From a virus (lineage: Duplodnaviria; Heunggongvirae; Uroviricota; Caudoviricetes), in the IMG/VR virus record IMGVR_UViG_2706794665_000005: a DNA stretch of 14,780 nucleotides. One strand, 5' to 3'. A model generated the notes under the pieces. It saw nothing but the letters and a program-made list of their open reading frames with translations. It was not told where the DNA came from and ran no database searches. Below, piece by piece: positions 4,198-14,780 of this stretch (within the stretch, counting starts at the first letter, position 1; every line of letters starts with the position of its first letter). The translations under genes and the position numbers were made by a program.

Positions 4198-4727
4198 CGT
4201 TTTATTGCAATCCTCAGTTGTTGTTTCAGCGCGTATGCCAGTTCTTTAGGCAGGCGTTCACGCCGGATACGGTCAACATTCTCATCAAATGCCTGTTTCA
4301 GTGGGGCCGCCATCGGGATTTTCACCACATCAATGGGGTAACGGTTTTTCCCGGCCACACGCTGCATGACATGCCAGCGACCATTTTTTAATCGCTGAAT
4401 AAATGCCCGCTGATACCGATGCTGACCGGCTTTAAGTATGCTGTTCGGGCGACGCCCCAGCATCCTGATCCCCAGCTTAATCACAGGGAGATCACCGCGG
4501 TTAACGATAATTCTGGCATTCGGATTTCTGACCGTCGCCCGTTTCAGTCTGGACCGTTCCTTAACCAGTTTCCGGCGAACCTTTGTCTCCCGGGCAACCT
4601 GTGATGAAGACTGATTAATCGCCGTTGTGGCCACGCGGTTAATGGCCATTGCTGAAGCCGCCGGAATGGCGTTTTTACGAACCCGGCTCAGATTGTCAAT
4701 CGCCTGATCAAGCCCTTTTATCGCCAT
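4194..4727 (-). CDS. Z: Tail completion protein gpZ
   Basis: 177-aa ORF MAIKGLDQAIDNLSRVRKNAIPAASAMAINRVATTAINQSSSQVARETKVRRKLVKER..., N- and C-terminal thirds lambda Z-like, middle divergent; position between FII and U. Confidence 0.88.
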   Translation of the reverse strand: MAIKGLDQAIDNLSRVRKNAIPAASAMAINRVATTAINQSSSQVARETKVRRKLVKERSRLKRATVRNPNARIIVNRGDLPVIKLGIRMLGRRPNSILKAGQHRYQRAFIQRLKNGRWHVMQRVAGKNRYPIDVVKIPMAAPLKQAFDENVDRIRRERLPKELAYALKQQLRIAIKR

Positions 4728-5523: not shown

Positions 5524-6552
5524 TTATTTCACCTGTACCACCACAAACTCATCCGGATCCGGCAGCACCATCAGCGGAGCGGACTGCGTCATGGTGAATT
5601 CACAGGACGGATCGCCCACGGTCAGCCAGTGTTTCGGGTAACGGGAAGAAGCCACCACTCCTTCAGACAACGCCTGTGCATCCTTAATGGCACCATAGCA
5701 ACGAATCCCCTCTGCCGCCGTATTCCCCAGCACCAGCATGCCCTCCGGCAGATAACGTTTTTCGGTACCGTCCTCTGCCACATAAGACGTTTTCGCCACC
5801 ACAATGGCCAGATCGCCGTAATACCCCTTGAAGGACACCACTGCGCCCAGATCTTTCACTGCCGTTTCGAGTTGTGAATTTGAGCCGCGACGGGTATCCA
5901 GTTTTTCGCGGAACAGCTTAAAGCCATTCAGCAGACGCCAGACCGTACCGTCCATAATGGCGATATTCACAAGGCCGCTGGCCTGATCGCAGTAGAGGTC
6001 AATATCATGCGTCGGATCAAACGTATCACGGTCCTGCTCAGACCATTTTTTACCGTCAGCCTGCTCAATGTTATTTCCTTCAGAGCGCCCGAAATCCACC
6101 TCGACAGTATCAAACTGATCCCCTTCCATGGTGTATTTGCCATACAGCACGGCATTCACCGCCTGCATTTCTTCCACCTGGACAATGGCGTGCTCTTCCT
6201 GTTTGAGGTTATCGGTAATGATACGCAGACGACGGTAGGCCGGGTCGTTCAGCTGAGCCGGATCTTCACCAGGAAGGCGCTCAACCGCCTGCTGGTAATT
6301 AAATTCGTGTTTGGGCTTGACGTAGCCCGGACGTAACACGCGGGTTTCACCACCGCGATGGCGAAGCACTTTTCCTTCAACGATCGGGGAGACATAGGCC
6401 GCCACCGGCGTTTTTCCGGTAATTTTGTCCAGCATCACCTCTTCGGTGTGGAAATTCACCGTACGGCGGAAAAACAGCTCCAGAAACAGCGCACGGAATT
6501 TCACTTTTTGTTCGGTATAACCGAGTAACTGGCGGGTCGTAAACAATCCCAT
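5524..6552 (-). CDS. E: Major capsid protein gpE
   Basis: 342-aa ORF MGLFTTRQLLGYTEQKVKF...LDTRRGSNSQLETAVKDLG...SAPLMVLPDPDEFVVVQVK, colinear with lambda E (341 aa). Confidence 0.96.
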   Translation of the reverse strand: MGLFTTRQLLGYTEQKVKFRALFLELFFRRTVNFHTEEVMLDKITGKTPVAAYVSPIVEGKVLRHRGGETRVLRPGYVKPKHEFNYQQAVERLPGEDPAQLNDPAYRRLRIITDNLKQEEHAIVQVEEMQAVNAVLYGKYTMEGDQFDTVEVDFGRSEGNNIEQADGKKWSEQDRDTFDPTHDIDLYCDQASGLVNIAIMDGTVWRLLNGFKLFREKLDTRRGSNSQLETAVKDLGAVVSFKGYYGDLAIVVAKTSYVAEDGTEKRYLPEGMLVLGNTAAEGIRCYGAIKDAQALSEGVVASSRYPKHWLTVGDPSCEFTMTQSAPLMVLPDPDEFVVVQVK

Positions 6553-12203: not shown

Positions 12204-12723
12204 CAATCCACCTGCGCACATTCTCACCGGCTTCAGAAGCCACATCGGATGCTTTCGCGATTTCAGTTTTCACAGCATCAAGATGTACGGGTGATATATC
12301 AGGGTATTTACGCTGCAGTGTCTGAGGGACACGGACAAGGATCCCTGATATATTCTGTGCCACTCGCTGAAAGATGTAGGTAAATAACTCCGTCTCGAGG
12401 ACAAGGCCTTCCTCACGAGCATTTTTCAGCTCCTGTGCATCGGCCTGTGCCTTCGTCAGTCGGTAACGTTCGTAATCAATGGTGCCGGGCTGAAGGTCTG
12501 ATTCGCTGGCAGCCCTCAAATCCTCGATCTCTTTACGGAGTTTTTCGTTTTCAATATCAGCTTCCCTCTGCGCATACCACTGAATGGCAGCAGTTGTATC
12601 AAAAACTGATTCAGTCCCTTTCCCTCCACCAGAAACTAGTGGTAACCCCTGACTCTGCCAGGCGGTGATGGTCCTGACATCAACGCCAAAAATATCGGCC
12701 AGTTTTTTCTTATTGACGTTCAT
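12175..12723 (-). CDS. Nu1: Terminase small subunit Nu1 (winged-HTH cosB-binding N-terminus)
   Basis: 182-aa [45 protein letters not shown]...[15 protein letters not shown]...; lambda Nu1-like, with a different putative recognition helix (lambda has IRTIQNWQEQG). Confidence 0.92.
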
Positions 12724-12737
12724 ACACTCCCCCGGGA

Positions 12738-12855
12738 ACCAGAAAGGATCTGAAAATGGCGTTTTCTAACAAAAACAGCCTTTGTCAGATCCTTTTATAT
12801 TTTTAAAATTCTATTGATAATCAATCAGTTAAAAAGAAGAAGAACGGATCTGATT
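12738..12855 (-). promoter_or_regulatory. cosB: three Nu1-binding R elements (R1 about 12741-12759, R2 about 12779-12798 inverted, R3 about 12834-12855) flanking an IHF site
   Basis: Minus-strand repeats TCAGATCCGTTCTTC (R3), TCAGATCCTTTCTGG (R1) and an inverted copy in R2. Same spacing and orientation pattern as lambda R3-I1-R2-R1, but core CAGATCC replaces lambda CGTTTCC; each element contains GATC. Confidence 0.6.
12819..12831. promoter_or_regulatory. IHF binding site (I1-like) between R3 and R2
   Basis: aatcaatcagtta matches the IHF consensus WATCAANNNNTTR exactly, in an AT-rich context, at the position of lambda I1. Confidence 0.55.
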
Positions 12856-12892
12856 TTTCCCTAAAAATTTTCATAAATAGCGAAAACCCGCG

Positions 12893-12904
12893 AGGTCGCC
12901 GCCC
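12893..12904. other. cosN cohesive-end site (12-nt overhang GGGCGGCGACCT on the phage top strand)
   Basis: Plus aggtcgccgccc is the reverse complement of GGGCGGCGACCT, identical to the lambda cohesive end. Flanks match lambda: CGCGGGTTTTCGCTATTTATGAAAATTTT on the Nu1 side and ...GGTCCTTTCCGG...GTTACG on the other side. Confidence 0.88.
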
Positions 12905-12937
12905 CGTAACGGCCCGGATCGCCGGAAAGGACCCGCA

Positions 12938-12960
12938 AAAATGATAATGGTTATCATTTT
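12938..12960. repeat. Perfect 10-bp-arm palindrome aaaatgataa-tgg-ttatcatttt, 33 bp from cosN on the genome right-end side
   Basis: Arms are exact reverse complements with a 3-bp spacer; lies where cosQ or another packaging-termination or protein-binding element would be expected. Confidence 0.5.
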
Positions 12961-13064
12961 CAATGTAGTCCGGTTTCTTCCACCATCGCACCGGACAGGC
13001 GACTATGAGGGGACAACGCCGCGCTCCGTTAACGCGGTAAACCCCGGTGTGTATCGTTTTTGAT

Positions 13065-13129
13065 TATCCCCGCACACTCGCGCAGAGGAGTCTCCCGGTC
13101 GGGCTGCGGTCTCTGTTAATGCGGGGATA
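13065..13129. repeat. Inverted repeat tatccccgca ... tgcggggata (10-bp arms, 45-nt spacer) between Rz and cos
   Basis: Arms at 13065-13074 and 13120-13129 are exact reverse complements; no U-tract follows on either strand, so this is not a canonical terminator. Confidence 0.4.
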
Positions 13130-13157
13130 CGGCGACAATACCGCGCATCAGCAAAAC

Positions 13158-13625
13158 TTATTTCAGGCACTGAGTGCGGATATATTCCTGCGCCACTTCC
13201 AGCTGCTTCTGCATCAGCATCAACCGCTCTCTGAGAGTGAAATAATCCCGTTCAGCGGTGTCTGCCAGTCGGGGGCCGGTTGCATTATCCACGCCGGAGG
13301 TGGTGGGGGCTTCACGCACGGTACCGGGGCAGGTGGCGTTGATCCGCAGGCGCTTACGACCAGCGGCAACGTCAGCGCGCAGAGTTTCATTTTCAGCTCT
13401 CGCATCGGCTAATTCCCTCGAGTATCTGGCATCAAGTGCAGCAACATCACGCTGGCGCTGCTGCATATCAGTAATGGTTGCATTTGCCTGCTCCAGCTCA
13501 CTGACTTTTTTATCGCGCTGCTCTTTGTAGGTTATGGCGTTATCACGGTAATGATTCAGCCCCAGACTAAGCGCACCACAGGCCACCAGCAGGGCAATGA
13601 TGACCACGCACAGTACGCGGTTCAT
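13158..13625 (-). CDS. Rz: Spanin inner-membrane subunit Rz (i-spanin)
   Basis: 155-aa ORF MNRVLCVVIIALLVACGALSLGLNHYRDNAITYKEQRDKK...; N-terminal TMD plus coiled-coil region; lambda Rz-like. Confidence 0.92.
   Translation of the reverse strand: MNRVLCVVIIALLVACGALSLGLNHYRDNAITYKEQRDKKVSELEQANATITDMQQRQRDVAALDARYSRELADARAENETLRADVAAGRKRLRINATCPGTVREAPTTSGVDNATGPRLADTAERDYFTLRERLMLMQKQLEVAQEYIRTQCLK
13220..13405 (-). CDS. Rz1: Spanin outer-membrane lipoprotein Rz1 (o-spanin), embedded in the +1 frame of Rz
   Basis: 61-aa ORF MRELKMKLCALTLPLVVSACGSTPPAPVPCVKPPPPPAWIMQPAPDWQTPLNGIISLSESG; lipobox VSAC, proline-rich, lambda Rz1-like, wholly inside Rz. Confidence 0.88.
   Translation of the reverse strand: MRELKMKLCALTLPLVVSACGSTPPAPVPCVKPPPPPAWIMQPAPDWQTPLNGIISLSESG
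13583..13590 (-). other. Chi octamer 5'-GCTGGTGG-3' on the minus strand
   Basis: Plus ccaccagc, exact; inside the Rz N-terminal codons (LLVA). Confidence 0.6.
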
Positions 13626-13626
13626 T

Positions 13627-13764
13627 TCACCACCAGCGTATCTGACCGATGAAATAACCGGAGGCCATAATCACAAACACCAGCCAGATAAGAATGAACT
13701 TCCAGGTGGATAATTTTTCAGCCATCACTCGAATCTCCCGAATCAGTTTGCTAAAATCAAACAC
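13627..13764 (-). CDS. Small hypothetical single-pass membrane protein (45 aa from GTG; 32 aa if ATG at 13725)
   Basis: Hand translation MFDFSKLIREIRVMAEKLSTWKFILIWLVFVIMASGYFIGQIRWW*. AAGGAG SD 5 nt before GTG at 13762-13764; stop TGA ends 1 nt before the Rz ATG. One hydrophobic stretch of about 20 residues. Below the ORF-track size cutoff; no homolog recognised. Confidence 0.35.
   Translation of the reverse strand: MFDFSKLIREIRVMAEKLSTWKFILIWLVFVIMASGYFIGQIRWW
13630..13637 (-). other. Chi octamer 5'-GCTGGTGG-3' on the minus strand
   Basis: Plus ccaccagc, exact; last codons (RWW) of the small ORF, just upstream of the Rz start. Confidence 0.6.
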
Positions 13765-13800
13765 ACTTTCTCCTTTGACTTTTCCGGAGTCAGGAAACAC

Positions 13801-13834
13801 AAAACCCCGCTTGGTGCCAACAAACGGGGTTTTT
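13801..13834. terminator. GC-rich hairpin flanked by T-tracts on both strands (bidirectional intrinsic-terminator-like) between R and the small ORF
   Basis: aaaaccccg (13801-13809) pairs with cggggtttt (13825-13833); loop contains the sub-palindrome ttggtgccaa. U-tract follows the stem on the plus strand (tttttactttt) and on the minus strand (UUUUGUGUUU). Confidence 0.45.
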
Positions 13835-13922
13835 ACTTTTATTCACTTACGTTTCGCCACTTCGCAGGATTTCATGTTATCCGCCCGCGTGGCCATGCCT
13901 TATTTTCAGCAAAATATTCTGC

Positions 13923-14456
13923 TTATCTGTCGATACCCCAGCACGCCAGCGCGCTCTCCTGGTCACGCCGTGAGACCTGTCCATAGCAGTTATTTGAACG
14001 AATACGGCAGTCTCTGCCACCGTCCTTAATCCACCAGCGAATCGCCTCACATGCTCCCCTGCGATCGCCAGCATTAATTCGTCTGTAAAACGTCGACGGG
14101 AAACACTTACCGGGACCAATGTTGTACGGACAGAATGACGCGATCCCCGCTTTCTGGGGTTCACTCAATGGCACTCTGATGTTTTTCTCCACCCATGCCA
14201 GCGCCTTATCACGCTCAATGGCGTTAACCCGGTCGCATTTTTCCTTCGACAACTTCATGCCCGGAACGACAGGTTTGCCATCCACCAGGATGGCACCGCG
14301 GCAGATGGTCCAGATACCCGCGCCATCACGGTATGCCGTGGTGTGGTTACCTTCCTTTTCATCCAGAAACTGGTCGAGAATGTCAGGCGCAGGCGCACCA
14401 GCGGCAATCAGTGCCAGAACGGCAGCCGACAGGCCGTATCTGATTTTTGCGTTCAT
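13923..14456 (-). CDS. R: SAR (signal-anchor-release) endolysin, T4-lysozyme-like muramidase (GH24)
   Basis: 177-aa ORF MNAKIRYGLSAAVLALIAAGAPAPDILDQFLDEKEGNHTTAYRDGAGIWTICRG.... Gly/Ala-rich weakly hydrophobic N-terminal segment (residues about 8-24) typical of a SAR domain. E35/D44/T50 spacing matches the catalytic triad of phage 21 R-type lysozymes; resembles E. coli cryptic-prophage RrrQ-type lysozymes from memory. Confidence 0.9.
   Translation of the reverse strand: MNAKIRYGLSAAVLALIAAGAPAPDILDQFLDEKEGNHTTAYRDGAGIWTICRGAILVDGKPVVPGMKLSKEKCDRVNAIERDKALAWVEKNIRVPLSEPQKAGIASFCPYNIGPGKCFPSTFYRRINAGDRRGACEAIRWWIKDGGRDCRIRSNNCYGQVSRRDQESALACWGIDR
14031..14038 (-). other. Chi octamer 5'-GCTGGTGG-3' on the minus strand
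   Basis: Plus ccaccagc, exact; inside R (codons RWW of ...EAIRWWIKDGG...). Confidence 0.6.
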
Positions 14457-14519
14457 GGATATTTATCAGGATTTATCGGTTTCTGCCCACGGACAGGTTT
14501 ATCTGTTCCGGTCAGTGAC

Positions 14520-14780
14520 TTAAGGTTGTGATTCCGGAGGAGTCTTCAGAGAACCAGTAATTCTTCCTGGTAGCTTTCCTTTGTAGGTTATCCACACATT
14601 CTGCGCCTCTAAAATTACGGGGCGCTTTTCCGGCGACTGCTCATCCCCTTCACATAACCCGGCAGCAACATCCAGGAAGACCTGAGGTGTACTGGCAATA
14701 GCGGACACTACCATTTGTTCTTTTTTTAAGCAGCCATCTGATGATATTTTTCCCTGAAGGCTGCCGGGGAGATATTCCCC
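14520..14780 (-). CDS. Hypothetical protein, C-terminal 86 aa; 5' end beyond the window edge
   Basis: Frame open from the window edge to TAA at 14520-14522: GEYLPGSLQGKISSDGCLKKEQMVVSAIASTPQVFLDVAAGLCEGDEQSPEKRPVILEAQNVWITYKGKLPGRITGSLKTPPESQP*. Hydrophilic, so not a holin. Sits immediately upstream of the endolysin. Confidence 0.5.
   Translation of the reverse strand, partial: GEYLPGSLQGKISSDGCLKKEQMVVSAIASTPQVFLDVAAGLCEGDEQSPEKRPVILEAQNVWITYKGKLPGRITGSLKTPPESQP

Follow-up and report, generated by a model that had tools for sequence, protein, structure and literature searches.

A probable lambdoid-prophage lysis cassette of phage 21/Qin/Stx-phage type with ydfR split by IS600

The end of the analysed DNA (i.e. 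the window, a 14,780-nucleotide stretch of IMG/VR virus record IMGVR_UViG_2706794665_000005) very likely represents the promoter-distal part of the late lysis cassette of a lambdoid prophage, of the phage 21/Qin/Stx-phage type, in which ydfR has been split by IS600 and the holin lies beyond the window. A preliminary description of this region had drawn attention to a SAR endolysin that lacked an adjacent holin. This appearance is a product of the window edge together with the IS600 insertion: as the window stops 98 bp into IS600, it shows a seemingly incomplete upstream ORF and no holin. The usual order of such cassettes is S (a P21-family class II holin of the pinholin type), ydfR, R (the predicted SAR endolysin), an optional small ORF, Rz/Rz1, cos and the terminase genes. 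In the 5' to 3' direction of the minus strand, the final part of the window consists of a foreign segment (14780-14683), a hydrophilic ORF (14682-14520), a spacer (14519-14457), R (14456-13923), a hairpin (13833-13801), a small ORF (13725-13627) and Rz (13625-13158) with Rz1 embedded in it (13405-13220). A lambda-type cos site and genes for a Nu1-like small terminase (12723-12175) and a large terminase (12245-10275) lie downstream of Rz/Rz1. The lysis genes S, R, Rz and Rz1 form a complete set apart from the ydfR pseudogene, S being seen in a near-identical chromosome. An Rfam scan of 12500-14780 with E values of up to 0.1 gave no match.

Insertion of IS600 into ydfR

The last 98 bp of the window (14683..14780, minus strand) are the right end of IS600, a member of the IS3 family. 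Searched alone, this segment matched hundreds of copies annotated as 'IS3-like element IS600 family transposase' with 98-100% identity. The segment comprises the final 16 codons and the TAA of the transposase OrfB (...GNISPAAFREKYHQMAA*) followed by the terminal inverted repeat, which ends ...ACACCTCA. In megablast/blastn searches of phage records and 5,426 complete E. coli genomes, all matches to the ydfR-R region began at window position 14684; the matched genes below this position were annotated 'YdfR family protein' and 'lysozyme' or 'rrrQ' with identities of up to 100%, and colinearity across 14684 was observed in 0 of the 5,426 complete genomes. The insertion site in ydfR codon 64 was found only in three contigs, all longer than 1 Mb, carrying the chimeric ORF that the insertion creates (see below).

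An exact look-up of this chimeric 64-aa ORF identified a locus, L003, in the bacterial chromosome CP049175.1 (GCA_013147165.1, 4.85 Mb; probably Shigella sonnei or a very close relative) that differs from the reverse complement of the window by 1 mismatch in 6,261 bp. The left end of IS600, the 5' half of ydfR and the holin were read from this near-identical locus and not from the source of the window itself. Comparison of L003 with an uninterrupted E. coli prophage (L001, in NZ_CP148357) revealed flanks of 99.6-99.9% identity and a 1,264-bp insert, located at 4769-6032 of L003 and ending in TGAGGT...ACCTCA (i.e. TG...CA termini with imperfect inverted repeats). The trinucleotide GGT is present on both sides of the insert (L003 4766-4768 and 6033-6035) and occurs singly in the intact ydfR of L001. 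The right copy of this 3-bp target-site duplication, which arose when IS600 entered ydfR codon 64, lies at 14680..14682 of the window (minus strand). The whole 1,264-bp element was 100% identical to annotated IS600 and encodes HTH_Tnp_1 and rve domains in orfA/orfB with a frameshift. The layout of L003 is thus holin, ydfR codons 1-63, IS600, ydfR codons 64-116, R and Rz/Rz1, with codons 1-63 of ydfR running into a stop 4 codons inside IS600.

The portion of ydfR that remains in the window (14520..14682, minus strand) is a 3' fragment of codons 64-116 plus the stop, a hydrophilic pseudogene remnant of the DUF1327 family that was identified with PF07041, phrog_406 and DNA identity. From 14684 downstream, the DNA was 100% identical to genes annotated 'YdfR family protein', and the encoded fragment aligned to the C-terminal half of full-length YdfR family members. 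The match to PF07041 (24.2 bits, E 4e-05) falls under the gathering cut-off of 25 because only profile positions 57-92 remain, as compared to 143 bits for the intact homologue in L001; the match to phrog_406 was strong (1.4e-33, profile positions 59-113 of 114). These data indicate that the fragment is an incomplete remnant of a DUF1327 member, the complete frame being about 114-116 aa in this subfamily, and bear out the earlier suggestion that the partial ORF is ydfR-like. The same description had correctly judged the upstream ORF to be hydrophilic and not a holin: the maximum 19-residue Kyte-Doolittle mean was just 0.69 for the intact YdfR homologue.

Other parts of the earlier reading have to be revised. 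The upstream gene was described as running from 14520 to the window edge, whereas homology to ydfR breaks at 14684 and 14683-14780 belongs to IS600; both the IS600 end and the split pseudogene had been overlooked. The possibility that the ORF is merely cut by the window edge is ruled out by this break and by the identification of IS600 beyond it. The listed 64-aa ORF (14520-14714) is a chimera whose ATG start lies inside the IS600 inverted repeat and which consists of 10 codons from this repeat, one Gln codon restored where the two sequences meet and codons 64-116 of ydfR. The chimeric fragment was identical to an NCBI protein (P0001) named '[Shigella sonnei]'. The chimeric 'DUF1327' protein of 64-78 aa that gene callers predict at this position should be flagged as a pseudogene fragment. 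A search with the 54-aa ydfR fragment as query returned almost exclusively partial or aberrant proteins, and the homologue search was repeated with a full-length YdfR homologue.

The consequences of the insertion for lysis depend on whether transcription crosses IS600. If the element were polar, R, Rz and Rz1 would have lost their coupling both to S and to the late promoter and would persist as relics of a defective prophage in a non-functional cassette. A 1.26-kb IS does lie between S and R, ydfR is destroyed, and IS-driven prophage decay is typical of Shigella genomes. However, full-length open frames are kept in S, R, Rz and Rz1, and the R protein does not differ from the lysozyme of the uninterrupted prophage in L001 (100% identity). 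The IS600 transposase is also co-oriented with the lysis genes, and terminators do not halt the Q-modified RNA polymerase of lambdoid phages; R and Rz may for these two reasons still be expressed across IS600. A non-functional cassette is accordingly regarded as somewhat unlikely, and a cassette with intact S, R, Rz and Rz1 frames and a split ydfR is the favoured reading.

Position of the holin and layout of related cassettes

The spacer between ydfR and R (14457..14519, minus strand) was examined by three-frame translation. Its length is 63 bp and not the 64 bp given in the preliminary description, and stops occur in two of the three minus-strand frames and not in all of them. The third frame runs for 20 codons without a stop, contains no ATG, GTG or TTG and is closed by a TGA that overlaps the start of R. 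A holin encoded in this spacer is thereby ruled out, and the earlier conclusion that no holin fits into this interval stands.

A holin gene was instead found upstream, as the preliminary description had anticipated in the first of its two alternatives, which placed the pinholin partner outside the window. In L003, a P21-type class II holin gene of 71 aa lies at 4358-4573 (approximately 16142-16357 in extended window coordinates), with its stop 1,685 bp upstream of the start of R and 4 bases before the start of ydfR. The product matched PF04971, 'Bacteriophage P21 holin S', with 112.5 bits (9e-33), residues 5-67 covering positions 1-63 of the 64 in the profile. The same protein is encoded in L001, where RefSeq labels it 'class II holin family protein', and it shares 64 of 68 residues with the annotated, 68-residue S protein of H-19B. 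The putative second transmembrane domain (WAAIGVLGSLLFGLLTYLT) has a Kyte-Doolittle mean of 1.70, the putative first (ITTGVSYTTSAVGTGYWFL) is Gly/Ser/Thr-rich by eye, and both Met1 and Met4 are present. The S proteins of Stx phages have been described as P21-family pinholins paired with SAR endolysins (PMC10462455). From its membership of the P21 family, the holin of this cassette would form small, depolarising holes that do not pass the endolysin.

The generality of this layout was assessed in 80 IMG/VR contigs encoding relatives of R (at least 93% identity), in which neighbouring genes were located by tblastn; being closely related, these contigs do not count as independent samples. A full-length P21-type holin was present 379-1,316 bp before the start of R in 64 of the 65 contigs having at least 1,600 bp of upstream sequence, and the remaining contig had a partial holin match. 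In none of the 65 was S adjacent to R. The slot between them was occupied by a YdfR-domain gene in 41 contigs, by YdfR joined to a C-terminal domain of ~140 aa in 13 (including the contig with the partial holin) and by the C-terminal module alone in 11. The slot gene was hydrophilic and modular in every related cassette examined, and no Pfam match was obtained for the ~140-aa C-terminal module or for the 185-aa alternative slot gene. As S, the slot gene and R occurred in this order in 64 of the 65 related contigs, such a layout is normal for the lineage of R.

The holin-ydfR-R arrangement is already known and annotated. RefSeq/GenBank relatives carry the annotation 'class II holin, YdfR family protein, lysozyme, (hypothetical), lysis protein', with rrrQ as a gene name in one relative, and this supports the analogy to essQ-ydfR-rrrQ of Qin that had been proposed. 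The arrangement is also visible in the H-19B record of 1998, where S and R are parted by 400 unannotated bp that match ydfR. A SAR endolysin without an adjacent holin is therefore not the anomaly that it had been taken for.

Endolysin, spanins and the interval between them

The gene R (13923..14456, minus strand) encodes a 177-aa lysozyme of the R21/RrrD/RrrQ type that is a predicted SAR endolysin, as indicated by a Pfam match (Phage_lysozyme PF00959, 84 bits, 1.4e-23) and by alignments to the chains of solved structures. In a HMMER alignment to 3HDE, residues E35, D44 and T50 of R stood opposite E35, D44 and T50 of phage 21 R21 (PDB 3HDE/3HDF), so that the spacing of the triad, E-x8-D-x5-T, is in register with R21. 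An alignment with RrrD (4ZPU) also placed the triad in register. The structure 3HDE is that of the full-length inactive form of R21. In addition to its identity to the L001 lysozyme, R matched the R protein of H-19B at 169 of 177 residues and an annotated rrrQ product at 163 of 177.

The N-terminus of R was inspected for the features of a SAR domain. Residues 7-24 (YGLSAAVLALIAAGAPAP) are preceded by K4 and R6 and form an Ala/Gly-rich, weakly hydrophobic segment, with a maximum 19-residue Kyte-Doolittle mean of 1.74 for R as compared to 2.11 for the SAR domain of R21 and 2.82 for the anchor of Rz. Residues 1-51 contain no Cys, which places R nearer to the R21 type than to the type of P1 Lyz, a disulfide-caged SAR endolysin. 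A competing explanation sees in this N-terminus a conventional Sec signal peptide that is cleaved off, which would make R a secreted and not a SAR endolysin. The hydrophobic stretch is indeed short (about 17-18 residues), and one site, I17-A18-A19|G20, is compatible with signal peptidase at -3/-1. The two Ala-X-Ala motifs (i.e. A19-G20-A21 and A21-P22-A23), by contrast, both have Pro at +1, a residue that blocks signal peptidase I at this position. The Ala/Gly-rich composition moreover resembles that of the R21 SAR domain, the triad has the same numbering as in R21, and the holin of the cassette is of the pinholin type that partners SAR endolysins. A cleavable signal peptide is consequently considered very improbable. 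For R as a SAR-type endolysin, tethering and release on depolarisation are predicted from homology to the phage 21 proteins, and the SAR-type N-terminus and E-D-T triad reported earlier are upheld by the R21/RrrD alignment and the Ala/Gly-rich, Cys-free segment; because the IAA|G site could still serve signal peptidase, the SAR behaviour of R is a prediction from sequence.

The genes downstream of R encode a two-component embedded spanin. Rz (13158..13625, minus strand) is the inner-membrane subunit, with 155 aa, a match to PF03245 (Phage_lysis, 8.1e-49) and the strongly hydrophobic N-terminal anchor mentioned above (Kyte-Doolittle 2.82). The outer-membrane lipoprotein subunit, Rz1 (61 aa; 13220..13405, minus strand; PF06085, 7.6e-21), is encoded inside Rz in another frame and has a lipobox, VVSAC, and a Pro-rich mature part.

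Two further features separate R from Rz. A terminator-like hairpin (13801..13833, minus strand) lies between R and the small ORF and consists of a 13-bp stem, AAAACCCCGTTTG/CAAGCGGGGTTTT, followed by GTGTTT. This hairpin is the only terminator-like site in 12700-14780, and its stem is invariant among relatives while the loop is variable. The small ORF (13627..13725, minus strand) encodes 32 aa from an ATG at 13725 (MAEKLSTWKFILIWLVFVIMASGYFIGQIRWW), with one predicted transmembrane segment (maximum Kyte-Doolittle mean 2.13-2.36), and matched phrog_6632 (1.2e-28), a family of unknown function; searches of Pfam and NCBIfam gave no match.

The preliminary description had offered this small membrane ORF as a substitute for the holin, and a role as holin, or as a partner of the SAR endolysin in the manner of a releasin, might be argued from its position inside the lysis cassette, where a conserved 32-aa peptide with a single transmembrane segment ends 1 base before the start of Rz (TGAaATG). 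Such a role is extremely doubtful. The near-identical genome and 64 of 65 relatives have a canonical P21-family holin upstream, and the small ORF is therefore not required as a holin. Of the 64 related contigs that extend far enough downstream, just 15 carry the small ORF, whereas nearly all relatives have the holin. The length of the interval between R and Rz varies from 298 to about 996 bp, and one relative, in which R and Rz overlap, has no small ORF. Conservation among the window, L001 and a further relative (L002) is limited to the 32-aa core. The 23 loci compared fell into only 5 haplotypes, and their variant sites (4 synonymous, 2 non-synonymous) were too few to test selection or to demonstrate purifying selection. 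The small ORF is an accessory gene in a minority of relatives, which may have a minor role.

YdfR and comparison with known lysis systems

By analogy with the mechanism established for phage 21, Sec would export R, which would stay inactive while its N-terminal SAR segment tethers it to the inner membrane. Triggering of the pinholin would depolarise the membrane, whereupon R would be released and refold into an active lysozyme, and Rz/Rz1 would finally disrupt the outer membrane. By the same analogy, ydfR would be a cytoplasmic accessory gene that is dispensable for this scheme, as phage 21 presumably has no ydfR.

Functional information on YdfR comes from the K-12 protein, which is reported to be cytoplasmic, to co-purify with RNA and to bind the catalytic N-terminal half of RNase E via its first 72 residues, as detected by two-hybrid and co-purification assays; its overproduction reportedly has little effect on the transcriptome (PMC13232886, 2026). 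The YdfR families in PHROGs are labelled 'unknown function', and YdfR, the holin and the small ORF are all without a model in NCBIfam. An AlphaFold2 model of YdfR, built from a 24-sequence alignment, was unusable (mean pLDDT 48, pTM 0.35); the alignment was shallow because the family is narrow, being confined to Escherichia and Shigella at 60% identity or more. Within the library of papers searched, none mentioned ydfR together with holin, DUF1327 was named in a single genomics paper, and a search combining pinholin, Stx phages, endolysin and spanin retrieved nothing. One speculative idea, to which we give little weight, is that the slot between the pinholin and the SAR endolysin encodes a dedicated late-phase regulator, acting by protection or timing of late/lysis mRNA via RNase E or by tuning of the pinholin trigger. 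If this were so, the slot gene would be no passive passenger and the IS600-split copy would be a natural loss-of-function allele. Whatever its role, ydfR is a pseudogene at this locus because IS600 parts the N-terminal 63 codons from the rest.

The importance of these observations lies mainly in correct annotation, the holin-ydfR-lysozyme layout being the usual one in Qin-like and Stx-like prophages, where it has already been annotated. The sole locus-specific feature is the IS600 insertion in ydfR, which is absent from every complete E. coli genome searched.

The closest known counterparts are the essQ-ydfR-rrrQ-rzpQ cluster of Qin and the clusters annotated in thousands of E. coli prophages, which have the same order and the same families, with DNA identities of 96-100% over ydfR(3')-R-Rz. 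The window differs from these in the splitting of ydfR by IS600 and in the presence between R and Rz of the 32-aa ORF and the hairpin, two features that are found in some relatives and missing from others. Phage 21 (S21-R21-Rz21/Rz1-21) shares the P21 holin S family, a catalytic triad in register, a Cys-free SAR-like N-terminus and an embedded Rz/Rz1 arrangement. The sequence of R is, however, distant from that of R21 (phmmer E 2.9e-16), and ydfR separates S from R here, whereas S and R are adjacent in phage 21. In Stx phages (H-19B, 933W-like, Stx2a/Stx1a), the common late region comprises nanS-p, S (pinholin), a ydfR-like ORF, R, (ORF) and Rz (PMC10462455). Their DNA is ~92% identical to the window over R-Rz, and the S and R proteins of H-19B are 94-95% identical to those described here; the present locus differs from these phages in its lambda-type cos/Nu1/A packaging module and in carrying IS600, and no stx genes were found in the fetched neighbourhood. 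The element itself resembles the IS600 insertions of other Shigella/EHEC prophages in its length of 1,264 bp, its 100% identity to annotated copies, its TG...CA ends and its 3-bp duplication, and differs from them in its site, ydfR codon 64, which is occupied in 0 of the 5,426 complete E. coli genomes.

Gene content of the intervals flanking R

The S-R slot (i.e. the interval between holin and endolysin genes) is occupied by a modular gene family. Four forms were observed: the YdfR domain alone (114-116 aa), YdfR with a coiled-coil linker (176-183 aa), YdfR with the linker and a C-terminal domain of ~140 aa (296-329 aa) and the linker with this C-terminal domain but no YdfR (158-222 aa). A search of Pfam gave no match for the ~140-aa domain. 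Slot genes in four of the related contigs were located, relative to the R start, at -927 to -37 (L021), -1032 to -43 (L034), -600 to -43 (L033) and -1313 to -672 (L058).

A second variable slot, between R and Rz, is present in the related contigs (i.e. L006-L085). Gaps between the R stop and the Rz start clustered at 298, ~336, ~487, 642 and ~993 bp, implying several alternative inserted genes. The window carries a small ORF here (13627-13725, minus strand) that encodes a 32-aa, single-TM product of phrog_6632, has its stop 1 base ahead of the Rz start and was found in 15 of 64 related cassettes. In RefSeq, the ORF is called at 71-72 aa from upstream GTG codons, but conservation is limited to the 32-aa core. 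Between R and the small ORF lies a terminator-like hairpin of 13 pairs (13801-13833, minus strand), bordered by an A-run and a T-run. The stem does not vary among relatives; the 7-nt loop reads TTGGCAC, TTGGCTG, TTGGCCG or TTGGCAG. This hairpin is located within the late operon.

Packaging end and annotation artefacts

The 12-base GGGCGGCGACCT, followed by CGCGGGTTTTCGCTATTTATGAAAATTTT, was found on the minus strand at 12893-12904, between Rz and the Nu1-like gene. The 12 bases are those of the lambda cohesive end (cosN), and the prophage thus carries a lambda-type packaging module.

An IS600/ydfR chimera (14520-14714, minus strand; 6001-6195 in the near-identical L003 locus; database protein P0001) is listed as a protein in public annotations, either of 64 aa or as a 78-aa 'DUF1327 domain-containing protein, partial [Shigella sonnei]'. 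The N-terminus of the annotated chimera is the translated IS600 inverted repeat. On the plus strand, a 134-aa ORF antisense to R (14119-14523) is probably spurious.

Probable holin fusions and the holin start

The holin (PF04971) and YdfR (PF07041) domains occur together within some single database proteins (P0055, P0074, P0081, P0126, P0135 and P0152). The holin and ydfR genes are separated by only 4 bp, and frameshift or read-through between them probably gave rise to these fused proteins. The holin encoded at 4358-4573 of L003 begins MYQMEK, a sequence in which Met1 and Met4 could possibly constitute a dual start. For H-19B, only a 68-aa form of the holin is annotated. The antiholin form of phage 21 (i.e. 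MKSM...) has a Lys that is absent from the extra residues of the longer L003 product.
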